From the NCBI GenBank assembly GCA_963768055.1, contig CAVYGN010000001.1:352001-416000 (forward strand): 64,000 nt of DNA, in the 5' to 3' direction. Each line of letters begins with the position of its first letter. The stretch's first letter is position 1. A model generated the notes under the pieces. It saw only the letters and a list, made by a program, of their open reading frames with translations. It searched no databases and was not told the DNA's origin. A program made the position numbers and the translations under genes. Positions 51,943 to 64,000 of the stretch are shown piece after piece. This stretch comes from an uncultured Spirochaetota bacterium (GTDB lineage Bacteria; Spirochaetota; Brevinematia; Brevinematales; JAOACQ01).

Positions 51943-52033
51943 CGGCCCCCCTAACAATATTCCACTATATATTGTTATCGACTGTAATTAGTTAATCTTT
52001 AGTGAAATTTAAAACACAAGTTGAAATCAAAAA

Positions 52034-52083
52034 CCGGCACCGGTGCCGGAGAAATTGACAAAGAAGGGTGCCCGGTGTATGAT
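52034..52083 (+). promoter_or_regulatory. Promoter for thiG-tlyA with an upstream perfect 16-bp palindrome
   Basis: CCGGCACCGGTGCCGG (52034-52049); TTGACA (52055), N17, TATGAT (52078-52083); ATG follows after 5 nt. Confidence 0.6.
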
Positions 52084-52088
52084 TAATT

Positions 52089-52880
52089 ATGGTCAATGGA
52101 AACAAAAATCAAAGCGGCGATACGTTCGAAATCGGAGGCAAAGCTTTTACAAACAGGCTTTTTATCGGGACCGGCAAACTCTCTTCTTCTGAACTGATAC
52201 CCCGGATCCTGGAGGCCTCGGGAAGCGAAATGATAACCGTGGCCTTGCGGAGGGTCGATTTCGACGCCGGGAAAAACAATATTTTATCCTTCATCCCCGG
52301 GAACGTCACTCTCCTTCCCAATACGTCGGGGGCAAGGAATGCGGAAGAAGCCGTGAGGATAGCCCGGATAGCAAGGGAGCTCGGCTGCGGTAATTTTATA
52401 AAAGTCGAAGTAATTCATGAAATGACATACCTTATGCCGGACAACGAAGAGACCGTGAGAGCCACCGAAACCCTCGCCAGAGAAGGATTCATAGTCCTTC
52501 CCTACGTTCAGCCGGACCTTGTAATAGCGAGAAAACTTTATGACGCAGGAGCGGCCGCGGTCATGCCCCTCGGTTCTCCTATAGGCTCGAACAGGGGCCT
52601 CTTGGCCAGGGACTTCCTCGAAATGATTATTGAGAATTCGATGCTCCCCGTCATCGTGGACGCAGGAATAGGCAGGCCTTCCCACGCGGCGGAAGCAATG
52701 GAAATGGGCGCCGACGCTGTCCTTATAAATACCGCGATAGCTACCGCCCCGGATCCTGTCGCCATAAGCGGGGCGTTTTCTCTTGCCGTCAGGGCCGGAA
52801 GGATCTCCTACCTGTCGGGATACGCGGAAGAGAGCAGAACAGGGTCCGCCAGTTCCCCGCTGACAGGTTTCCTCGGGTGA
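52089..52880 (+). CDS. thiG: Thiazole synthase
   Basis: RLFIGTGK, TVALRR, LLPNTSGA, IKVEVI, VMPLGSPIGS, VDAGIG.PS and ASSP motifs. Confidence 0.96.
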   Translation: MVNGNKNQSGDTFEIGGKAFTNRLFIGTGKLSSSELIPRILEASGSEMITVALRRVDFDAGKNNILSFIPGNVTLLPNTSGARNAEEAVRIARIARELGCGNFIKVEVIHEMTYLMPDNEETVRATETLAREGFIVLPYVQPDLVIARKLYDAGAAAVMPLGSPIGSNRGLLARDFLEMIIENSMLPVIVDAGIGRPSHAAEAMEMGADAVLINTAIATAPDPVAISGAFSLAVRAGRISYLSGYAEESRTGSASSPLTGFLG

Positions 52881-53626
52881 ATAAAGTTCCTAAAGAAAGG
52901 CTCGATCTGCTTCTTGTTTCAAGGGGCTTCTGCGAAACCAGACAGAAGGCGAAGGCCCTTATCCTTGCAGGCGAAGTCGCTGTCAACGGGTCCGTCGTTA
53001 CCAAGAGCGGCATGTCTCTGCCGGCAGATTCCGAAATAACCGTAAAAAAAAAGTTCCCGTATGTAGGCAGGGGGGCGCTTAAACTCATCTCCGCACTCGA
53101 CTATTTCAAGATCGACCCGGATAAGAAAATTGCCATCGATATCGGCTCTTCGACAGGAGGCTTCACCCAGGTCCTTCTCGAAAGGGGGGCAATGCTGGTC
53201 TATGCGGTGGATTCGGGGACCAACCAGCTCGACTGGAGGATCAGGAACGACCCCCGGGTAGTAGTGATGGAAAACACCAATGCCAGGAATATCACTCCGG
53301 ACATGTTCGGGGAAAAGCCGGAAATCGGCGTCATAGACGTTTCGTTTATATCAATTACAAAAATCCTTCCCGCATTGCAGGCCGTTATGACAGGGGACTA
53401 TTCCATAATTGCATTGATAAAGCCCCAGTTCGAACTGGAAAAGAAAAAAATAGGCAAAAGGGGCCTGGCCGGCGAAAAGTTCAGGGAAGAGGCCGTCAAA
53501 AGGGTCCTCGATTTCGCGAAGGGCCTGGGCCTTGAAGCGGGGGAGGCGATCGAGTCGCCGATACGAGGCCTAAAGAGCGGGAACGTGGAGTATCTGGTGA
53601 GGTTCGGGAGGTCTTGCTTGCTGTAG
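52877..53626 (+). CDS. tlyA: TlyA family rRNA methyltransferase
   Basis: S4 domain (KERLD.LLV.RG), YV.RG.LKL, DIGSSTGGFT, DVSFIS, LIKPQFE and SPI.G..GN.EYL; GTG start overlapping the thiG stop. Confidence 0.95.
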   Translation: MNKVPKERLDLLLVSRGFCETRQKAKALILAGEVAVNGSVVTKSGMSLPADSEITVKKKFPYVGRGALKLISALDYFKIDPDKKIAIDIGSSTGGFTQVLLERGAMLVYAVDSGTNQLDWRIRNDPRVVVMENTNARNITPDMFGEKPEIGVIDVSFISITKILPALQAVMTGDYSIIALIKPQFELEKKKIGKRGLAGEKFREEAVKRVLDFAKGLGLEAGEAIESPIRGLKSGNVEYLVRFGRSCLL

Positions 53627-53687
53627 ATAGATAAAAAAGTTGCGTAATGGAAAATAAACATGGGTAATGGAAAAAAAGTTGCGTAAT
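53622..53687 (+). mobile_element. Tn7-like/TnsB-type transposon end (TGT plus three contiguous ~20-bp sites)
   Basis: TGTAGATAG ATAAAAAAGTTGCGTAATGG AAAATAAACATGGGTAATGG AAAAAAAGTTGCGTAAT; 24 bp of it recur perfectly inverted at 58426-58449. Confidence 0.6.
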
Positions 53688-53849
53688 TTCAAGCTGTGAT
53701 AAAGTTATTTTAAACAAAGCAATAACTCCTGATCTCTAATAAGCCAATTATATTTAATCGTCAATTTCCCGAGTACAAATCATCTTGTTGAGGTCATTCC
53801 CGCCATCCAGTTAATTCGAACTCGCTGTTGTACGCTGCCAGGCCGAAAA

Positions 53850-54734
53850 TCAGTTTAAAATTATGCTTTGTCTAAACATATCTTCAATATTCACATTTGG
53901 GTGGTGGTAATCCTTCCCCTCAAATTTACTCCAATGATGAATCGCCTTTGCCGGACACCACTCGTCACAGGCAAGGCACATCTCACAATGGTGCTGCCAA
54001 ACAGGCTTATTTTCAATTATTTTTATATTTTGGACAGGACAAACCTTAGCGCAAGTCCCACAACCATTACATTTATCATTAACATAAATACTTTTATCAG
54101 TCAATGGTATTAATTCATGAAAGCTAAGATTTGAATCTTCCGGTACTTTTGCAGTCTTCTTGAGGGATTTTTCAATATATTTATGCATTATAGAATACAT
54201 TGGGGCCAAAAGTACGTTAAATAGTGATTTTATAATTTTATATTTGGTATTTTTTCTTTTGATAATTCGCTGGCAAATATCCTCTATTTTTTTATGACTA
54301 TTTTTAAATATTATTTCATGATTTCTCTCAACAGGAACAGGAATATGATCATAATCTAAGTTGTTCAAAGGAAGTCTGACTGAAAATTCTCCAGAAAGTT
54401 TACCGCCCATTGACTGAATTAATTTAGATAAGTTTTTTAGAGCCGGAAGGGCGTTAACAGGACCATAACATCCATAAGTGCATACTGCAAAAATGTTTTT
54501 TAACTCTATGTTATCTAATTTTTTGATAAATTTCTCTACTATTAATGGTATACCATAGAGTTGGGAAAGATAACATGGAAATACAATCCCAACAATATCA
54601 GCTTCAGTTTTTATAATTTGTTTATTAATAATCGACGGAATGGATATCAAAGTCCCCTTTATTTTATCAGCTATATCCCTTGCCACAGCCAATGAATTGC
54701 CAGTTCCGGTAAAATAGTAAACTTCTCTATTCAT
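53850..54734 (-). CDS. EFR1-family ferredoxin (flavodoxin + 4Fe-4S domains)
   Basis: YYFTGTGNSL, CNGCGTCAKVCP and CEMCLACDEWCP motifs. Confidence 0.9.
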   Translation of the reverse strand: MNREVYYFTGTGNSLAVARDIADKIKGTLISIPSIINKQIIKTEADIVGIVFPCYLSQLYGIPLIVEKFIKKLDNIELKNIFAVCTYGCYGPVNALPALKNLSKLIQSMGGKLSGEFSVRLPLNNLDYDHIPVPVERNHEIIFKNSHKKIEDICQRIIKRKNTKYKIIKSLFNVLLAPMYSIMHKYIEKSLKKTAKVPEDSNLSFHELIPLTDKSIYVNDKCNGCGTCAKVCPVQNIKIIENKPVWQHHCEMCLACDEWCPAKAIHHWSKFEGKDYHHPNVNIEDMFRQSIILN

Positions 54735-54869
54735 AAAATAATTTTCCCATACTTTTTATTCTTCACAGAATTATAAATTATCAAACCATATTTGACAATA
54801 GGTATTATCATTAATCCCTAATTTGCCTTTTTACTAGGGAATCTGGGTGGCCCCGGACAACCGAACAAT

Positions 54870-55192
54870 TAACAAACAAAATAATTGATAGATTGTCGGA
54901 GCTTTTTGTTGAACGCGGAGCCCCGGAGTATATACGAAGCGATAATGGATCTGAATTTACGGCAAAGGCACTATGGAAATGGCTAAAAAGAGTCAATGTA
55001 AAAACATTGTATATTGAACCCGGGAGCCCATGGGAAAATGGGTATATTGAATCTTTTAATGGAAAATTAATGGATGAGTTTCTTAATGGAGAGCTGTTCG
55101 ATACCCTGCTTGAAGCAAAAGTATTGACCGGGAGATGGAGAAGGGAGTATAATCATGTACGGCCGCATAGTTCACTGGGTTATCGGCCGCCT
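54870..55192 (+). pseudogene. IS3-family transposase OrfB fragment
   Basis: RGAPEYIRSDNGSEF...IEPGSPWENGYIESFNG...W..EYN..RPHSSLGYRPP; N-terminus and true C-terminus missing. Confidence 0.88.
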
Positions 55193-55819
55193 TTTCCTTG
55201 CCGCCATGATCAGATAGGCTCTTTCGATATTTTCTCTCTCGTGAATTTCATAATGAATATCTTTAAAATTTGACGCCGATAATTTCCCGACGACTTCATC
55301 TAATGTGTATTTATTAAATATTTCATCGTCCACGTTGCTGAGATTATCCAGTGTCGAGGGGCTGGCCATATATAAATATAATAGCCCGCCGTCTTTTAAT
55401 AAACCGTATATTTTGCTAAAATATGTTCCAAGGTCATTCCAGAAATAGAGGACATTGATCCCGATTATTTTGCTGAAGCACTTTTGGGAATTATCAGAAT
55501 TATATGTCAATAAATCGTCATGCGACAGAAAGACAGTTCCCGCGCCGATATGGTCTTTATTTTTCCTTAAGGCTTTTTTATACATGACCTTCGAGAAATC
55601 GATCCCGGAAACCGTTATATTTTGATCCCGCCCGGCCAGGATATTTATCCCCGTTCCGGCGCCGTAGCCGATCTCCAGGACATGATCACCGTCTACGGTT
55701 TTAACGCGGGGCATGATCCACTGGTACAGCTTCGCGTTTTTCCTCTCCATCCTTCCGGATATTATTTTACCTAATAAACCCGAGGGTTTTCTATACTGTT
55801 TTGCGATCAATTTTGACAC
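55172..55819 (-). CDS. Class I SAM-dependent methyltransferase
   Basis: Q.RKPSG.LG, VLEIGYGAG, GIDFS and NVLYFW motifs; GTG start; last codons come from the antisense IS3 remnant. Confidence 0.85.
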   Translation of the reverse strand: MSKLIAKQYRKPSGLLGKIISGRMERKNAKLYQWIMPRVKTVDGDHVLEIGYGAGTGINILAGRDQNITVSGIDFSKVMYKKALRKNKDHIGAGTVFLSHDDLLTYNSDNSQKCFSKIIGINVLYFWNDLGTYFSKIYGLLKDGGLLYLYMASPSTLDNLSNVDDEIFNKYTLDEVVGKLSASNFKDIHYEIHERENIERAYLIMAARKRRPITQ

Positions 55820-55957
55820 GATTTCCTCTGTTTTGTATTAAAATTATCCGGCGATATTCTATAATGTTTTTGTTCCTGGTTAATAATATTAATTCGAAAT
55901 TTCCAAAATGCCTCAACATTTTTGCCAATCTCGAAAACACCTTCATCCCAGTAATAA

Positions 55958-55986
55958 ATTATAACAAGACCAAAACATCATGTCAA
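55958..55986 (-). promoter_or_regulatory. Consensus sigma70 promoter
   Basis: Minus strand TTGACA (55986-55981), N17, TATAAT (55963-55958). Confidence 0.65.
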
Positions 55987-56134
55987 ATCAGTTTTTGATT
56001 GTCGGCTCAACACAAACCTTCTCAAATGGGGCTTCCCCTTTATCGGCTTTGATAAAATATTTAAGACAAGATTTAACCAGCCTGGTGGAAGATAGAAGAT
56101 CTTGTTTCGAAAATTAATAACCTTGGGATCGAGA

Positions 56135-57292
56135 TCAGGGAAAAGCATAACCCGGATAGGTTGACCGGTTTGTCATTAAGTCTCTCACAAATTTCCCTGA
56201 CCGGGTTAAATCCGCCTCTCCCCAGCCGCCGTCAGTTTTAGTCCCATTAATTAAAAAAGATGTCGTTTCCCAGGGCACGTCTGAAAGAGAATAGTTGCAC
56301 CAGCTGATATTTTTACTGTTCAGGAAATTTATCCAGAGCCTGGCATTATTTAAATCAAGCGGTGTTGAAGGATTTAATCCTGAAATACAGGCTCCCCATT
56401 CCGTACAGAAAATGGCAATATTGGTTAACGCCGATGAAATACGGTTTGTCATCGAGAGAGGTTCTCCTGTATAAAAATGGGAAGTATACATAATATTTTC
56501 ATATTTCAGCGGATTGGCGGATGCATGGTGCTGGTCGATGCTCCAAAACTCGGTTCCGACAATTATAAGCGCATTGGAATCCCCCGCGCGGATTGCGGGT
56601 ATAATATACTCGGCATAAGGTTTTATACTGCTGTTCCACTTAACATGATTAGGCTCATTGCAGATCTCATAAATAACTTGTTTTTTCGCCCCATACAGAA
56701 ATGCCATCCTTTTAAAGAAATCATAAGCATTGGTTTTATGCAGATTCGGATCGCCGTCAAATAGGATTTGCCAATCGATTATACAGTAAATTCCGCATTC
56801 TTCAGTTATCCTTACGGCATCCTTTATATAATTTTCAAGAGCCGGATTATCTAAATATCCGGGTTCAATGACAGAGCCCGTACCGCTGCCCCAGTGTCCG
56901 CCTGCCGGCCAGAGTGGAACTCTAAGCACATCCATTTTCCAATTTTTTGACAGATATGATATAGCTTTATAGTTTATGAATTTTGCTTCATAATTCAGGC
57001 CGCGGAGGTACAGCCCCCTGAGCTGTACGGGATTGCCATATTCGTCGCAAAGCTGTGTCCCTACAATTTTCAATTTGCCGTGCCTGGCAACAGGCGATCC
57101 TTCAGGGTAAATTCCCAGTACCCCGCTATTGGTAAAAGGGAGATATTCCTGCCGGACCTGTAAGCTTGTCGTGATAGTTTCATCAGGTTCGGTATAGAAT
57201 GGTTCTAAATCAATACAGGATGTTAAACAGGCAATAACTGCAAGCATACAAGAAAATAAAAGGCATTTAATTCGAGATTTCCCATTTAGCAT
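56135..57292 (-). CDS. Glycoside hydrolase family 5 endoglucanase (lipoprotein), paralog of 25727-26830
   Basis: YEICNEP and CTEWG catalytic motifs; lipobox CLTSC; long identical stretches with the first copy. Confidence 0.9.
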   Translation of the reverse strand: MLNGKSRIKCLLFSCMLAVIACLTSCIDLEPFYTEPDETITTSLQVRQEYLPFTNSGVLGIYPEGSPVARHGKLKIVGTQLCDEYGNPVQLRGLYLRGLNYEAKFINYKAISYLSKNWKMDVLRVPLWPAGGHWGSGTGSVIEPGYLDNPALENYIKDAVRITEECGIYCIIDWQILFDGDPNLHKTNAYDFFKRMAFLYGAKKQVIYEICNEPNHVKWNSSIKPYAEYIIPAIRAGDSNALIIVGTEFWSIDQHHASANPLKYENIMYTSHFYTGEPLSMTNRISSALTNIAIFCTEWGACISGLNPSTPLDLNNARLWINFLNSKNISWCNYSLSDVPWETTSFLINGTKTDGGWGEADLTRSGKFVRDLMTNRSTYPGYAFP

Positions 57293-57537
57293 ATTGAAAC
57301 TCCAAAAATCCGAGCCCTAATGCGTTATACCAATACTTTATAAACCTTATCAGGACATGTCAATATAAATTCCGTCTTTCACAAACTTAAATTGGGCTGA
57401 TAAGCAGCATCGCCTTGGAAGTAGCGATCCGGAATATGATCTCTATATCTTTCAACAATAGCCTTTATTCATTCTTTCATCAATAATTATATCATTGTGT
57501 AAATTGATATTCAAAGTTTCATCTGGGAAATCCCGTT

Positions 57538-58197
57538 TTATATTTGCTTCTTTTTTAAACTATCATGCGCCATAGCGGTAATCACTGTTAATATAATTAA
57601 ACCAAGCACAGTCAAACCGCTGGCGATTGATAGTGTTACAAAGACATCCGGGTCCGGGTTTGGTCCATTCAATCCGGAGAGATAACCATAAATGATAGGC
57701 ACAGGGACCATTAAAAGCTCCGCTGTAAAAAACCAGGGCCAAAGCAGAGCAAGAAATCCCCTGAAAACAGAAGGTGTTTTGTTCCATAACTTGAAGGATG
57801 ATTTTATTTTAAAACCGGCAATACCGCTTAGGATTAAGAACAAAATCGGCGCAAATCCTCCTCCAACAAGCAGGAGCAGAATCAACAGTAAATAAAGAAT
57901 GATACTGCCGAACTTTTTATGGATAAAAAAAGCGGACCAGGCCATGATGATTAGTCCTGTTATCACGGCCAGGATTCCTGTTATTAAATAGTTCGGAATG
58001 ATAGTCATCGCCGGTTCAACGCCAAAGGGGAAAGGCAACCCTTTGCCGGTATAGGCGTTGATAACTGTGGTGGTTATAGCGATATTGCCATGGAGGATTT
58101 CGCCAATCCCATGTTCCAACCCTAATATTCCGCCCAACACGCCGAAAGAAGACGCGGTGATCCTGGATGCGTTAATCCCTTTTTTGAAATCTAACAT
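57538..58197 (-). CDS. Hypothetical multi-pass membrane protein
   Basis: RBS AAGGAG; G..G.EHGIGEIL.GN, EPAMTIIPN.L.TG and LVGGGF.P motifs. Confidence 0.75.
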   Translation of the reverse strand: MLDFKKGINASRITASSFGVLGGILGLEHGIGEILHGNIAITTTVINAYTGKGLPFPFGVEPAMTIIPNYLITGILAVITGLIIMAWSAFFIHKKFGSIILYLLLILLLLVGGGFAPILFLILSGIAGFKIKSSFKLWNKTPSVFRGFLALLWPWFFTAELLMVPVPIIYGYLSGLNGPNPDPDVFVTLSIASGLTVLGLIILTVITAMAHDSLKKKQI

Positions 58198-58425
58198 TAT
58201 AATACTCCTTTTCAACAACAATTGTTAAAATTATAATAAATTTCTTTGTTGATAAAAAATCACTCCAAATTCTTACTGTTTACTATATCTTACTTTTGAA
58301 TTTATTATTAATCAATAGGTATTTTATCCTATTTAAATTTATTAGAAACGCCAAGGAAGGCGGGCATCATTTTATAAATAAACTTCGGCACGGCTTTTGT
58401 ATAGATTTTTATCTATGATAAAATT

Positions 58426-58449
58426 TTTTCCATTACGCAACTTTTTTAT
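58426..58449 (-). repeat. Inverted copy of the transposon-end site
   Basis: Reverse complement is ATAAAAAAGTTGCGTAATGGAAAA, identical to 53631-53654. Confidence 0.85.
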
Positions 58450-58466
58450 TCACTTATTTATATATA

Positions 58467-58483
58467 GGGCGGTTCCAAAAACC
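58467..58483 (+). repeat. IS5-like TIR copy (GGGCGGTTCCAAAAACC)
   Basis: 16/17 identical to the reverse complement of 37631-37647; preceded by TA. Confidence 0.6.
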
Positions 58484-58511
58484 AACTTTAATTTTCGTTT
58501 GATTTATTGTT

Positions 58512-59435
58512 TTAATAGTCGGCAATTCTTTTTTCAATTCTATTTATTAAAAATGTAATCCATCTGGAGGGTTCATTTTTTTGTCCGAAATCAAAATCCG
58601 AATAATGCTTAACTATTGATTCAGCGTAAAACCTCCCATCTTTTGATTTCTCCCGAACATAATTTATCATACTATTGAAACTTTTGCTCTTTATAGCATA
58701 CGGAAACAGTGAAAGTACATCAATGACTCGTAAGATACCATAGGTTACAGCAGGATATTTTAATTTGGTAAAATCACTTCCTATCCCAAAACCATAAGGC
58801 CGCCATTTTTCGTTTCTTCTGTCCCAATGGGTCAATAATAAGTCAATTGCTCCGTTTAATTTTGGATCATTTCTATATTCTTCAAATTGGCCGAGCAGCA
58901 ATAAAATATTCTGATTATCCATTGGACATGATTCACTGTCTTGAAGCTTTTGACCGACGGCACGCTGTTTTGCGCAATGCCAGCCACCGTCTAATCTCTG
59001 TGTTTTAAAAATCAACTGAATGAATTTTTTATTCTTTTGTTCATTATTATATTTCATTTTTACTAATGAAGACAGAAGAATTGTTGGAATACAAAAATAG
59101 CTCGGTTTCATCTCTTTCGAAGTAATAAATGTCCCATCAGCCGATTGAAGATCGTACATTGTTTCCGCTTCTTTTTCAAGATTAATATCATTAACAGTTA
59201 ATCCAATATCTGCAAGGAAATACAGATCCCAATAAACATTCCCTTTATAAGAAAGTTCGCCTGTTATTAATGCCGTAAGTCCTTGAGAATCTTTTAGTTC
59301 ATTTACAATATTTTTTATTGAAATATCTGATAAAACATGTTTTACATCCGACTTTTTATCTAATAGCTGTAATTCTACTGCGTATTTCAACCATTTTGGT
59401 CCTTCAAGCAGCCAATCTATAATATTTTCATCCAT
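58512..59435 (-). CDS. Hypothetical alpha-helical protein (prenyltransferase/squalene-oxidase-repeat-like)
   Basis: IDWLLEG, Q..DG.F, Q..DGGW.C and SRWIT motifs. Confidence 0.6.
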   Translation of the reverse strand: MDENIIDWLLEGPKWLKYAVELQLLDKKSDVKHVLSDISIKNIVNELKDSQGLTALITGELSYKGNVYWDLYFLADIGLTVNDINLEKEAETMYDLQSADGTFITSKEMKPSYFCIPTILLSSLVKMKYNNEQKNKKFIQLIFKTQRLDGGWHCAKQRAVGQKLQDSESCPMDNQNILLLLGQFEEYRNDPKLNGAIDLLLTHWDRRNEKWRPYGFGIGSDFTKLKYPAVTYGILRVIDVLSLFPYAIKSKSFNSMINYVREKSKDGRFYAESIVKHYSDFDFGQKNEPSRWITFLINRIEKRIADY

Positions 59436-59480
59436 TTATAGGGCCTCTTATATATTCCAAGCCGTATACAATAAGCTTAA

Positions 59481-59996
59481 AGGCGGTTTAAAAACTGCCC
59501 TATCATGTACAAATAGACTAATTTAAGATAAAATAATAGTCAAGGTTAACATTGTAGAGGGGAATGTTAAAATGACAAAAATCAAGAAGCAGACGAATCA
59601 AGGACTGTTTGAATACCAGGAACGAATTGAAAAACTTGGCAAAACTCCATTAGACAAGCTTAACGAAAATATAGAATGGGAAGACTTCCGACCTATTCTA
59701 ACTGAACTGCTCGCCCTCAAAGAACAAAAGGCTCCAGGCGGCGCTTCACATTATGATTATGTTTTTATGTTCAAAATCCTCATTATTCAGAAGTATTATA
59801 ACCTTTCCGATGAGCATACAATTCATTTATAATGAGGCAAAAGGCGCAATATTTTACATAAACCCCATTGAAAATGGGGATATTTATGCCATGCTAAAGG
59901 TATTGATTAGAAATTTTGAAAATAAATTGGAATAAGAATTTTAATCAAATTGATGTTTGTGGATCACGGTTATAAAGAGTAGATATTGGAACCGCC
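59481..59996 (+). mobile_element. Truncated IS5-family element (transposase N-terminal fragment 59572-59832)
   Basis: GLF....R...L...PL..L...I.WE.FRP.L...GG...YD..FMFKILIIQ..YNLSDE; flanked by degenerate TIR-like AGGCGGTTTAAAAACT (59481) and GATATTGGAACCGCC (59982-59996). Confidence 0.75.
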
Positions 59997-60011
59997 ATTA
60001 AATTCTTTTAT

Positions 60012-61037
60012 ATGAGGGCTATTATGCAATTAATCGATTTCAGGGGAAATAAAGCCTACCCCGACAGCTTCTGGGCAAATTCATCACCGGAATCCGAGGG
60101 ATTGGATTCGGAATATTTATTAAAAGCGCTTGAATACATAGACAAGCAGGATTATGAAATACATAGTTTCCTGGTTATCCGTCATGAAAAACTGGTTTTC
60201 GAATATTACGGCCGGGACAAACAGGCCGGCGGCATTCAGTTGACCCCGAATGACCTGCATAAAATGTGGTCGACCACTAAAACTATCACATCGGCTTTAA
60301 TTGGGATTGCAATTGATGAAGGATTCATTCCCGGCGTTAAGGCTAAGGTAATGGATTATTTCCGTGATGACGGCATCATAAATTTAACTGAAACCAAAGA
60401 GAAATTGACCATTGAAGACCTTCTGACTATGCAAAGCGGCCTGGATTATTCAGAGGATAGCGACAGCTCTCTGTTTTCAAGCACATATAATTCCAGTAAA
60501 TTTTTTCTTGACAGGCCTATGGTATCCATTCCCGGATACTTATGGAATTATAGCACAGGTAACTCGCAGATCCTGGCGGAAATCCTGCGGAAAGTTACAG
60601 CTAAAACGCTTTCGGATTACTGCTCGGAAAAGCTTTTTTTGCCGATGGGAATAGTTGATTTTAACTGGCTCTGGGATAAAAACGGGACATACTTCGGCGG
60701 CTGGGGCCTTTCCATCAAGCCGAGGGACTTGGCCCGTTTCGGCTGTCTTTACTTGAAAAAGGGACTTTGGAAAGACCGGGAACTGGTCCCTTCATCATGG
60801 GTGGAGACATCCACAAAAGCTTATGCGGCTACGCCATGGGCAGGCGGCAAATACGGCTATCACTGCTGGATACCCGATTTTGGAGGATTTGCCACCCTCG
60901 GGAAAATGGGACAGAGCATGTATATATTTCCTGATAAAGATTTAATTGCCGTTTTTACGGCTGCGCTTCCCATACAGATGGCGGATACTATTCTCAACTA
61001 TATAGTTGAGAATTATGTTCTTCAAGAATTGAATTAA
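60012..61037 (+). CDS. Serine hydrolase (beta-lactamase class C-like family)
   Basis: SPE..GLD, SxxK (STTK), LLTM.SGL, WNYS, PRDLARFG.LYL and YGY..W motifs. Confidence 0.88.
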   Translation: MRAIMQLIDFRGNKAYPDSFWANSSPESEGLDSEYLLKALEYIDKQDYEIHSFLVIRHEKLVFEYYGRDKQAGGIQLTPNDLHKMWSTTKTITSALIGIAIDEGFIPGVKAKVMDYFRDDGIINLTETKEKLTIEDLLTMQSGLDYSEDSDSSLFSSTYNSSKFFLDRPMVSIPGYLWNYSTGNSQILAEILRKVTAKTLSDYCSEKLFLPMGIVDFNWLWDKNGTYFGGWGLSIKPRDLARFGCLYLKKGLWKDRELVPSSWVETSTKAYAATPWAGGKYGYHCWIPDFGGFATLGKMGQSMYIFPDKDLIAVFTAALPIQMADTILNYIVENYVLQELN

Positions 61038-61124
61038 TATAAAACGCATTTTCCCCACGGATGTTATCGTTCATATATAGTTCTAGCATAGAAATAAGAT
61101 TATTTTTTGCTTTCCGTAAAAAGG

Positions 61125-61230
61125 CTATATTTTTATCACCAAAGCGTCCAATATTTTTCTTTGATCCTCTTCAGGCGTAGTGACGATCTTGCAGGCCGTT
61201 CCATTCATTGTAATGCTTCCCGCTTAATTA
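61125..61230 (-). pseudogene. Possible IS1634-family transposase C-terminal relic
   Basis: Hand translation ...SITMNGTACKIVTTPEEDQRKILDALVIKI* resembles the T.P...Q..ILD.L C-terminus of IS1634 transposases. Confidence 0.4.
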
Positions 61231-61473
61231 TCTGGATTTTAACGAAACCGGAACACACCGGGAAGTAATGAGAAAGATAAAGAATATTGGCGATAAAAAA
61301 GGCTGGCTTTCAGCTTCTTCCGAATTACCTTCTGAGAAAGACTTGGATCTGGCGTATTATTCTCAATTTTTTACAAAATAAAATTGACTTTTATATTTTT
61401 TGTTATATTATATAATAACAATTATTACTTAATATTAATGAAAAAATCTTATTAATTAAAATGAGGAAAAATT

Positions 61474-62610
61474 ATGGGAAAAGGTAAATCGCCAAACAAT
61501 AATGATTCAAAGGGGATTTATGGCATATTGATTGCAATGGGCATAGGACTTATTATAGTTTTTCTGTCCGCTTTGAATTCCGGATGGTTATCAATCAGCA
61601 TTGGTCTCCTGGTTGCCGGTGCATCGATTATGGCAGGAGGCTTGCTGGGATTCCTGTTCGGTATTCCTCGATCGCTTCAAATCAGTGAATTAACAGGCGG
61701 GCAAGCGGATAAAACGGATAAAGGGGCATACAAAGCAAATACCAACCTCGAACAGATCTCGGACTGGCTTACTAAGATTCTCGTAGGAGTCGGACTGACA
61801 CAATTAACAAAGGTGCCTGAAAAATTGAATGATCTGGCAAAATTCCTTTCACCGGGATTCGGGGGTACGCCTCAATCGGAAATAATGGCTGTAACTATTG
61901 TGTTGTTGTTTTCTATTTCGGGTTTTTTGTTCGGTTACCTTTATACAAGATTGTTTGTTGGAGAACAGCTTAGAAAAGCTGACGATGCGGCTTTAGGAGA
62001 AATGATAAATGATGAAATTGGAAAACAGATGTCCCAGGATGCAAGAGCGCTGACGCTTGTTCAGCAGCACCTTAACCCGCGTAACGACACTCGGGCAGTA
62101 TCGTATGAAGAGTTAAGTGATGCTATCGCTAAGGCTTCTCCCGAAGAAAAAACAACAATATTCTATCAGGCAATGGAAATAAGAAACCAGAACTGGCAAA
62201 ACAATAAAGAGAAAATGGAGCGGACCATTCCGGTTTTCCAGGCCCTCGTTGATAGCGATAAGGAGAATTTATATCATAAAAATCATGGTCAATTAGGTTT
62301 CGCATTAAAGGACAAGAAAAAACCTGATTGGGAGGATGCAGAAAAGGAATTAAACACTGCTATTCGGATCCGCGGGGATTCGAAGACTCATGGCTGGCTG
62401 TATTATGAGTTCAATCGTGCAATCTGCCGAATCAACCTTGAATTACTAAAAGGAACAACTGGTCTTTCGCCCTATCATGATCAAATAATAGCTGATCTTA
62501 AGGAAGTCTATAGCAAAAGTGAACTTCAAAAATTGATTGAGGAAGACCAGACCATAATGGCATGGATGAATAGAAATAATGTGAAATTAGATGATCTTAA
62601 TTCCAACTAG
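61474..62610 (+). CDS. Membrane protein with a TPR-like C-terminal domain
   Basis: TM region with GGLLGFLFGIPRS...NTNLEQISDWLTKILVGVGLTQL; helical C-domain (HGQLGFALKD, YEFNRAICRI). Confidence 0.75.
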   Translation: MGKGKSPNNNDSKGIYGILIAMGIGLIIVFLSALNSGWLSISIGLLVAGASIMAGGLLGFLFGIPRSLQISELTGGQADKTDKGAYKANTNLEQISDWLTKILVGVGLTQLTKVPEKLNDLAKFLSPGFGGTPQSEIMAVTIVLLFSISGFLFGYLYTRLFVGEQLRKADDAALGEMINDEIGKQMSQDARALTLVQQHLNPRNDTRAVSYEELSDAIAKASPEEKTTIFYQAMEIRNQNWQNNKEKMERTIPVFQALVDSDKENLYHKNHGQLGFALKDKKKPDWEDAEKELNTAIRIRGDSKTHGWLYYEFNRAICRINLELLKGTTGLSPYHDQIIADLKEVYSKSELQKLIEEDQTIMAWMNRNNVKLDDLNSN

Positions 62611-62794
62611 ATGATCATAATGATAGCAGTAAGTCCTTTGTTACAAATGATATTTATATTATATTAGCTTCAAAAAATTAAAGTGAGGGTCAACATCGTC
62701 TGGATTTCATCGAAAATTCTTGAAATCCACTAGCAATTTTTTTGAATAGTTCTTCTTTTTCGAGGAAAGAATGTGGTGAAGCTAATTCGATATA

Positions 62795-63973
62795 TTATAA
62801 CAGATTGGAGCCACTTTTGATACTATTGCTTTGGGAATTTAGATTATTGGTAATTTCTGTTTCGAGTTTTTCATTGTGGTCTTTCGGCAGTCCAAGTTGA
62901 ACTAGAAGATCACTACTGTAAAATGCTTGATTCCAATTCTCAGCGCTCTTGATCATTTTGATTAGAAGAGGATTAACTTTTATTCCTTTGAGATCTGCAT
63001 ATTTGAGATCGGCTCCATCGAGGTGAGCCCCCTCGATGTCGGCTCCAGAAAAAACAGCATATTCGAGGATAGCTCCATTGAAATCCGCATATTTGAGATC
63101 GGCTCCATCGAGGTGAGCCCCATCGAAGTCAGCCGCAGAAAAAACAGCATATTCGAGTATGGCTTCATTAAAAAATGCCTTTTTAAAGTTGGCGCTTTTA
63201 AAGTTTACCTTCATAAATTCGGCATGTTCAAGTCTAGCTTCTTGAAGATCGGCGCCCTCAAAGTCAGCGTGGATAAAATTTGTGTCCGAGAAATACGAGC
63301 CTTCGTTACCCCTAGGAAGAATAGAAGCATATTTGAGGTCAGCTCCTTGAAGAATGGCCTTCTTAAAGTTGGCGCCATAAAAACGTGCATATTCGAGATT
63401 AGCTCCTTGAAGATTGCCTTCCCTGAAGTCGGTCATCTCTAAATCTATCAATCGCAGGTTGTTTCCCTGGAATTGGGCACCTTTTAAGCTGGCCCCCTTG
63501 AAATGGGCTTTATCAAGGATAGCTCCCTGGAAATTGGCGTTATTCAGGTTAGCTCCATTGAAAATAGTCCCCGTAAGATGTGCTTTTTGAAGATTCACGG
63601 AATGCATGAATGCGGAATGCAGATCCATAAACGCTAGCCATGATTCTTTGAGATCTTCCTGGTGAAGATCTAATGTCCGACGAAAAGATTCCGGGTTAAA
63701 AGGTAAATATGTCATTATGATGACGAGCAGACATAGGGTCATCCAACGAGGTTTATTCCATTCACGGCGTTGATTCTCAGAGCAACGACGTATTTGCAAG
63801 AAAATAAGAGAGAATGTGATTAAACATGCAACATAGATCAGAGGATATCCTAATTCAGGGCGAGCCGAAGCCTTCCAGGCTATTATCCACAAAGCTATCG
63901 ATACCATCCAATAGAAAATAAAGGATGAAAGGATACGCGGCATAGTATTTGTAATATTGAAAATGGTTGTCAT
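62795..63973 (-). CDS. Membrane-anchored pentapeptide-repeat protein
   Basis: Three N-terminal TMs; A(D/N)(L/F)xx repeats; internal 90-bp duplication (62998 versus 63088); RBS AGGAG-like region at the window end. Confidence 0.88.
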   Translation of the reverse strand: MTTIFNITNTMPRILSSFIFYWMVSIALWIIAWKASARPELGYPLIYVACLITFSLIFLQIRRCSENQRREWNKPRWMTLCLLVIIMTYLPFNPESFRRTLDLHQEDLKESWLAFMDLHSAFMHSVNLQKAHLTGTIFNGANLNNANFQGAILDKAHFKGASLKGAQFQGNNLRLIDLEMTDFREGNLQGANLEYARFYGANFKKAILQGADLKYASILPRGNEGSYFSDTNFIHADFEGADLQEARLEHAEFMKVNFKSANFKKAFFNEAILEYAVFSAADFDGAHLDGADLKYADFNGAILEYAVFSGADIEGAHLDGADLKYADLKGIKVNPLLIKMIKSAENWNQAFYSSDLLVQLGLPKDHNEKLETEITNNLNSQSNSIKSGSNLL

Positions 63974-64000
63974 GCTCTCTATAGGAGGGGCGTTTGTCTT

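Follow-up and report, generated by a model that had tools for sequence, protein, structure and literature searches.

A probable Tn7-type transposon end fused to the tlyA stop codon of an uncultured Spirochaetota bacterium, with tlyA as a candidate attachment site

The tlyA gene of an uncultured Spirochaetota bacterium (NCBI GenBank assembly GCA_963768055.1) runs at its 3′ end directly into a block of short tandem repeats, one of which recurs in inverted orientation some distance downstream. According to the original prediction, made from a stretch of 64,000 nucleotides (contig CAVYGN010000001.1, positions 352,001 to 416,000; hereafter the window, in whose positions coordinates are given), this block is the end of a Tn7-like transposon, or of another element of TnsB/MuA type, inserted at tlyA, and it marks the start of an accessory island. 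The genome holding the window, G000, is assembled into 2 contigs with 3,688,977 bases and is 94.75% complete. It was compared with four other genomes of the same genus (G001, G002, G003 and G004, making five in all), with relatives used for the comparison of ends and tns operons (G006, G012, G019, G022 and G331), and with a phylum sample of 401 genomes. The features at the junction and at the inverted copy are as follows.

52877..53626, plus strand: tlyA, gene of an S4 and FtsJ-type rRNA methyltransferase (Pfam FtsJ 1.1e-37, S4 2.9e-11)
53579..53596, plus strand: GNVEYL codons, the last conserved block of tlyA (16/18 nt identical between G000 and G003)
53617..53621, plus strand: CTTGC, predicted copy of a target-site duplication beside the transposon tip (from the sequence)
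53622..53690, plus strand: probable right end of a Tn7-clade transposon, consisting of a tip and three contiguous TnsB-type sites (from anatomy, site uniqueness and relatives)
53622-53630: tip of the right end, TGTAGATAG
53631-53650, plus strand: right-end site 1, ATAAAAAAGTTGCGTAATGG
53651-53670, plus strand: right-end site 2, AAAATAAACATGGGTAATGG
53671-53690, plus strand: right-end site 3, AAAAAAAGTTGCGTAATTTC
58426..58458, minus strand: left-end-type terminal segment, with a 24-nt site (58426-58449) identical to right-end site 1

The stop codon of tlyA (TAG, 53624-53626) lies within TGTAG at 53622-53626, and the final five bases of the gene, stop included, are transposon DNA, because the insertion fell within the last tlyA codons. 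Both this stop and the three contiguous sites of about 20 bp that had been claimed to follow it are seen at 53622-53690. The sites are arranged head to tail with spacings of 20 and 19 nt; AGTTGCGTAAT is present in sites 1 and 3 and ACATGGGTAAT in site 2, with AAAAAAGTTGCGTAAT within sites 1 and 3 and AAACATGGGTAATGG within site 2. The perfect 24-bp inverted copy, placed 4.8 kb away in the prediction, is likewise there: 53631-53654 and 58426-58449 are 100% complementary over 24 nt and form the longest perfect inverted pair in 52000-64000, followed by a pair of 16 nt between site 3 and the same inverted copy. A contiguous right-end array together with a lone site at 58426-58449 is the arrangement of predicted TnsB sites found in Tn7-like elements.

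The 13-mer AAAGTTGCGTAAT has exactly three copies in the whole genome, all of them at this locus, and allowing one mismatch adds 6 further hits, against 7 for the reversed control. A weight matrix was built from 12 sites and used with a hit threshold of 14 or more and with the reversed pattern as a control. It gave scores of 27.6, 27.6, 22.3 and 19.9 to the four sites, a score of 21.0 to the next-best genome hit, which has no TGT, and 45 genome-wide hits compared to 80 in the control. A generic scan of G000 for TGT-N11-AAAGT produced 11 hits, with tandem sites at the tlyA hit only. The repeat block and its inverted copy are real and not a product of chance, and the 3.69-Mb genome has no strong site besides these four. 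The motif, for which a genome scan had been proposed, is not scattered beside simple insertion sequences (IS).

The nature of the block becomes apparent from relatives in which the transposition genes are still in place. Ends of this family share a common build: TGT is followed after 11 nt by AAAGT and then by a contiguous series of two or three sites of about 20 bp, and the end begins within a few bases of the stop codon of a conserved gene whose transcription runs towards the end. In G004 (contig G004:C4), the end TGTAAATAAATAAAAAAGTTGTATAATGG+ATAAAAATGTTGTGTAATG lies directly against the stop codon of an rlmD-like TRAM/U5-methyltransferase gene, and the operon behind it codes for TnsA (PF08721/PF08722), a 714-aa TnsB (Mu-transpos_C), TnsC (AAA_22/TniB), a 330-aa TniQ and a 537-aa TnsD (PF15978 1e-46). 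When compared with PDB structures, this TnsB matches Tn7 TnsB (7pik, E = 4.2e-102) and the TnsD matches Tn7 TnsD (8glu, E = 2.2e-26). Ends of this build are likewise followed by tnsA-B-C-D, with the gene order unchanged, in G006 (after an rlmD-like gene), G012 (after glmS) and G019 (after a purU-like gene), and G022 and G331 carry same-build ends after glmS. Some of the relatives' ends, situated directly upstream of tnsA, even share part of the site sequence with the window. Since the ends next to tns operons have this build, the block in the window is to be read as a right end, and very likely as one of Tn7 type, as the original prediction had it.

The expected 5-bp duplications are also found in members of the family, whose elements show both TGT/ACA tips. 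A mini-element of 187 bp in G003 is flanked by TTTTC and has the site type of the window, GCGTAAT, at both ends (TGTA..AAAAAGT(A/T)GCGTAATG), and a 21.3-kb element in G006 is flanked by AGTAC. The right end of the latter has three contiguous sites and its left end has sites 64 nt apart, which corresponds to the contiguous right-end and dispersed left-end sites of Tn7. Prototypic Tn7 (TnsABCDE, with attTn7 at the glmS 3′ end) has the same TGT tip, about eight more bases and then tandem sites of about 20 bp, and there, too, the right end points at the 3′ end of a conserved gene whose transcription runs in its direction; the relatives resemble it further in their duplications, in the order of their tns genes, in their TnsB and TnsD and, for some of them, in their location at glmS. 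The element of the window differs from Tn7 in its target, tlyA, and in an insertion within the last codons that turns the gene tail and stop into transposon DNA, and in G000 it is without tns genes, an intact left tip or a duplication.

TGT tips, repeated terminal sites and 5-bp duplications are common to the Tn5053/Tn402, IS21 and Mu-like families, and the block could for this reason be taken as the end of another multi-site DDE transposon. However, the relatives' elements with this tip spacing and site sequence all carry tnsA and tnsD by the end, they lie in one orientation just after conserved genes, glmS included, and their TnsB belongs close to that of Tn7, so such an origin is very improbable.

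Two of the target genes in these relatives, the rlmD-like gene of G004 and G006 and the purU-like gene of G019, represent further attachment genes of this clade (L041 9142-10425; L050; L049). At the rlmD-like target, 26-28 nt separate the conserved DMFPQT.HVE codons from the insertion downstream of them. The TnsD of G004 is closest to that of G006, which has the same target gene, with 55% identity compared to 41% and 37% for the others.

In G000 itself, the element is dead. Searches of G000 for the TniQ and Mu-transpos_C families and for relatives of the TnsA protein gave 0 matches, and tblastn of the five G004 Tns proteins reached a best E of 0.13. The search for tnsA/B/C and tniQ suggested by the prediction therefore found none, and its statement that no transposase is in view holds for genes of Tn7 type, but remnants of an IS3-family (54893-55273) and a DUF772 (59572-59832) transposase are in view. 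Since G000 has no TnsA/B/C or TniQ/TnsD, the element has to be a relic or a non-autonomous derivative and not an autonomous member of the family.

The inverted copy lacks a terminal ACA, as had been noted. The right end has TGT at 53622-53624, and the expected ACA position, 58456-58458, reads ATT. Read inward, the tip of the copy (58450-58458) is AATAAGTGA; it keeps the family spacing but carries AAT instead of TGT. From 58458 inward, AATAAGTGAAT precedes the site, with a spacing comparable to that of the relatives' tips TGTAAATAAAT, TGTGGTCGAAT and TGTTGACTTAT. No second site abuts 58426-58449, as is the case in left ends. The original alternatives, a decayed end or an inner site of one, both stand, and for 58426-58458 we tend to favour a terminal site of a left end whose tip has mutated. 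The predicted duplication CTTGC has no partner: the outer flank of the inverted copy (58459-58463) is TATAT, and ACA followed by CTTGC, either exact or with one mismatch and a site nearby, is absent from the 60 kb downstream. This mismatch of the flanks counts against a simple single insertion, and the left flank of the unit was probably exchanged by a later rearrangement or recombination. With no tns genes, with AAT at its left-type tip and with no repeat of CTTGC in its flank, the unit between the ends (53622-58458, 4,837 bp) is an immobile, cargo-only relic.

The tlyA 3′ ends of the five genomes of the genus were compared with each other and with 13 ends from other genera. The five ends of the genus, with their distances downstream of the GNVEYL codons, are as follows.

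G000: 25 nt, clear end
G003: 24 nt, clear end
G002: 23 nt, clear end
G001: 22 nt, degenerate, with a 5-nt insertion and a weak site; probable stump
G004: 23 nt, degenerate, with TTT for TGT and one site; probable stump

An end or a stump in the same orientation is thus present in 5/5 genomes of the genus, as site-specific insertion predicts, and in 0/13 tlyA ends of other genera, in agreement with the proposal of tlyA as a candidate attachment site. The tlyA stop is transposon DNA in G000, G001 and G002; in G003 the gene ends at a stop codon of its own, 3 nt short of the tip. Of the 401 genomes in the phylum sample, 3 show a strict tlyA-junction pattern, and all three belong to this genus; the reversed control gave 3 hits. 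The same sequence after tlyA in a relative without the island had been named as an observation that would speak against the proposal. Such a sequence is indeed there in G003, but it is again a transposon end, with different DNA beyond it.

The preservation of the repeats after tlyA in several species could also be expected if they were native signals of the host, for instance a terminator behind tlyA or sites resembling operators or iterons, with the second copy regulating a gene 4.8 kb away; the inverted copy does lie upstream of a promoter-like region, at a distance of about 100 nt, and this region is also present at a flavodoxin gene of G004. On the other hand, no such sites follow tlyA in the 13 genomes read from other genera, G000 has no further copies of them, a scan of the tlyA-adjacent region for Rfam families, tRNA genes and terminator-like hairpins found none, and the same build adjoins tnsA in relatives, all of which makes a host signal scarcely credible.

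A more serious alternative is a single ancient insertion in the ancestor of the genus, whose genes were subsequently lost and whose stump was inherited vertically, in which case tlyA would be neither a recurrent nor a current site. Several observations fit this alternative. The end or stump is at nearly the same position in all five genomes with no tns genes beside it, and no tns-bearing element is present at tlyA in the five genomes of the genus or in the 7/401 phylum genomes with a TnsA relative, whose attachment genes are glmS, rlmD-like, purU-like and one unclear. Nor was an intact tlyA-associated element found in metagenomes, where a scan with the tlyA-junction pattern gave 6 hits, of which 2 are contigs resembling G002 that share its tlyA end and carry no tns genes; the remaining 4 are not tlyA, and one of them, L069, resembles a further Tn7-like end behind a different gene. 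Other points weigh against reading the window as a Tn7-clade insertion at a repeatedly used site. The ends of G001 and G004 are degenerate and possibly over-read. In the window, the inverted copy consists of one site with no TGT tip, and the unit has no target duplication (CTTGC vs TATAT); a 4.67-kb unit after tlyA in G002 also has no tns genes, and its flanks, GGTGT and GGCTC, form no duplication. Finally, the species tree rests on one protein, DnaN, in six rows, with its deeper fork unresolved.

Nevertheless, other observations are difficult to reconcile with one old insertion. The ends of G000 and G003 are identical in 45/50 positions, while the 25 nt of tlyA tail after the GNVEYL codons are identical in only 9/25, the 29 aligned positions beyond the end in 8/29 and tlyA DNA overall in 72%; neutral decay should have erased the end too. 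In the DnaN tree, G000, G001 and G002 are grouped (support 94/91) with G003 outside, yet the window shares its site type with G003, and G002, closer to G000, has another one (GTGCACT, cf. GTGCCCT in G019) in both right-end sites and in the cognate left end. As this type is consistent across the sites of G002, it points to co-evolution with another TnsB and not to drift. The offsets of the junctions vary from 22 to 25 nt, and the GCGTAAT type was recently mobile in G003, as the mini-element with its intact duplication indicates. Furthermore, G002 shows a stack of ends belonging to three types at tlyA: the 6.3 kb after the gene contain a right end together with its cognate left end, and also a nested mini-element and another left end, the last of a third type. 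The nested mini-element is 1.18 kb long (L058 1003-2178; G002:C13:19202-20377), is flanked by AGATG and AAATG, and consists of a right end with three GGAAAYT-type sites, a cognate left end and one 219-aa cargo open reading frame (ORF). G002 also holds a tnsC-tnsD fragment on an unplaced 1.5-kb contig, C28.

Given these contrasts, a single old insertion is unlikely. Repeated insertion is the more probable explanation, since the types of end disagree with the species tree and ends are stacked in G002. Our main reading, which is well supported, is that 53622-53690 is the right (tnsA-proximal) end of a prototypic Tn7-clade transposon that inserted into the last codons of tlyA and is now dead, at a gene that was hit repeatedly. 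If the tlyA 3′ end was hit more than once in the genus, it behaves as an attachment site. The claim that tlyA is a true and repeatedly used one rests on comparative evidence and seems, on balance, probable.

Regarding the mechanism, TnsD is known to bind conserved coding sequence at the 3′ end of its target gene, at least about 23 bp away from the point of insertion; TnsC forms the link to TnsAB, and target immunity is conferred by Tn7 right ends. By analogy, TnsB would bind the three right-end sites, TnsA together with TnsB would cut at the TGT tip, and a selector of TnsD/TniQ type positioned on the conserved 3′ coding block of tlyA would recruit TnsC. Insertion would then take place at a fixed short distance downstream, in one orientation and with a 5-bp duplication. 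The GNVEYL codons are the presumed recognition region of the selector, and the insertion point in the window lies 25 nt downstream of them; a selector gene linked to tlyA was looked for and none was found.

It is an even question whether the tlyA 3′ end serves, repeatedly and within one genus, as an unlisted Tn7-clade attachment site for at least two or three lineages with different TnsB site types. Most of the insertions would then be mini-elements that consist of cargo only and are mobilised in trans by an autonomous element at another place, e.g., via the second small TniQ beside TnsD in G004, and each insertion would rewrite the C-terminal tail of TlyA and its stop codon. The well-preserved orphan right ends might persist because their intact TnsB sites give target immunity.

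Attachment sites named for Tn7-like elements in the accessible part of PMC11406308 include glmS, yhiN, comM, parE, tRNA genes, guaC, yciA, ffs and rsmJ. Elements of the Tn6230 family at yhiN and other Tn7-like elements each home to one conserved gene end via a dedicated TniQ/TnsD-type selector or a guide RNA. The decayed ends at tlyA resemble those that remain at attachment sites of such elements, while tlyA is not among the sites named in that part of the source. No CRISPR-Cas genes were seen in the relatives' elements, for which no systematic search was made. Stacked and cargo-only Tn7-like elements at one site are described for Acinetobacter resistance islands in the portions of PMC11014353 available to us, and G002 likewise has several end types and mini-elements devoid of a transposase. 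The loss of synteny starting exactly at the attachment gene is a further likeness to the islands as presented in those portions, whereas the cargo described there differs from the ordinary metabolic and envelope genes found here.

In a literature search that left most subscription papers outside its reach, no report linking tlyA to a Tn7-like element, to TnsD or to a Tn7 attachment site was found. The accessible portions of the main texts of PMC10293859 and PMC8649781 name no tlyA, hemolysin or methyltransferase target, and those of their supplements contain no tlyA, hemolysin, FtsJ, rlmD or rumA. A Tn7-type element is a known kind of element, and the candidate attachment site at tlyA is new to the literature searched; as the coverage was incomplete, calling it undescribed is provisional. 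Insertions at tlyA would explain why gene order in the genus breaks exactly at this gene and why TlyA has a different tail in each species. They would also add a candidate attachment gene, coding for an rRNA methyltransferase, to the list of the Tn7 family, beside the rlmD-like and purU-like sites. If a tlyA selector protein exists, it would represent a further natural system of protein-guided integration at a single site, close to Tn7.

Synteny between G000 and G003 ends exactly at the tlyA stop. The ORFs located 3′ of tlyA in G003, G001 and G002 are found elsewhere in G000 or have no match there, and the 30 kb downstream of tlyA in G000 map to scattered loci and to multi-copy IS and repeat pieces in relatives. 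The label of accessory island, given to everything right of tlyA, is a fair one with regard to this loss of synteny, but the right border cannot be set, since synteny with every relative is lost from tlyA onward. Across the junction, G+C content falls from 0.47-0.53 to 0.32-0.42 in the unit, which carries the following genes, listed together with a remnant beyond its left-type end.

53850..54734, minus strand: cargo, flavodoxin-like/4Fe-4S protein, 294 aa (domain search; homologue in G004)
54893..55273, plus strand: IS3-family transposase remnant, C-terminal integrase core only (rve_3 3e-28)
55172..55819, minus strand: cargo, SAM-dependent methyltransferase, 215 aa (domain search)
56135..57292, minus strand: cargo, GH5 cellulase-family lipoprotein, 385 aa (PF00150 7.6e-43)
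57538..58221, minus strand: cargo, membrane protein with no Pfam family, 227 aa (ORF and domain search)
59572-59832: DUF772 transposase remnant (domain search)

The homologue of the flavodoxin-like gene is situated at a different locus in G004 and has 79% DNA identity. Upstream of the membrane-protein ORF, at 58190-58345, the beginning of a second flavodoxin-like gene survives as a remnant, with about 10 codons, the ribosome-binding site and the sequence preceding it. The homologue on G004:C6 aligns with this remnant at its 5′ end and matches 53867-54758 with its coding part. The two flavodoxin pieces (58190-58345 and 54690-54830) are contiguous in G004 and 3.5 kb apart in G000, an arrangement that suggests a mini-element which originally held one gene and was expanded later. 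In 53627-64000, no resistance or defence genes were recognised except for a protein of beta-lactamase fold (PF00144) at 60012-61037.

Several minor observations concern the other ends and loci. Beside the Tn7-like operon on G004:C4, an 80-bp block (L041 1568-1648) contains TGTAGATGGA followed by three contiguous GTATAC-type sites that face the opposite way, finish with ..TTTCACA and form a right-type end towards the operon (minus strand TGTGAAATGACAATAAAGTCG...). It was considered as the left end of the G004 element but could not be assigned as such; its flanks, ATTAT and GAAGG, differ from the CCTAT of the right end, and the block may consist of abutting stumps of other elements. In G003, ACA+AATTG at +21,043 was considered as a partner of the tlyA end and is taken as chance because it has no inverted site. 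Genome contigs scanned for close relatives of the G004 TnsB yielded 35 stretches with the peptide pattern and 0 confirmed cases. The two-site end pattern gave 0 hits in metagenome contigs and 1 hit in genome contigs, a promoter-like chance match in an unrelated contig of a metagenome-assembled genome. In the G004 tlyA region (L046; G004:C2), the match to tlyA stops at residue 234 of 249 and the GNVEYL codons are in frame with an upstream stop, so this 3′ end may carry a frameshift or an assembly error. In the metagenome contig L069 (7680-7860), a TGT tip and repeated AAAGTAACTTCG-like sites follow a cutA-like gene that encodes GNVEYL by chance; this is possibly another Tn7-like right end, on a contig that ends soon after.

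Dispersed repeats are also found around the cargo. A repeat of ~115 bp at 57267-57380, between the GH5 and membrane-protein genes, has many copies in G003 (84-87% identity) and further ones in G001, G002 and G004, and is probably a small non-autonomous element. The DUF772-type transposase fragment at 59477-59832 has G003 copies at 88% (three) and at 73-74% identity, and >20 copies at about 69% in G004. Likewise, a repeat of ~55 bp just downstream of a pentapeptide-repeat gene (62790-62845) is present in many copies in G004, with identities of 85-90%.

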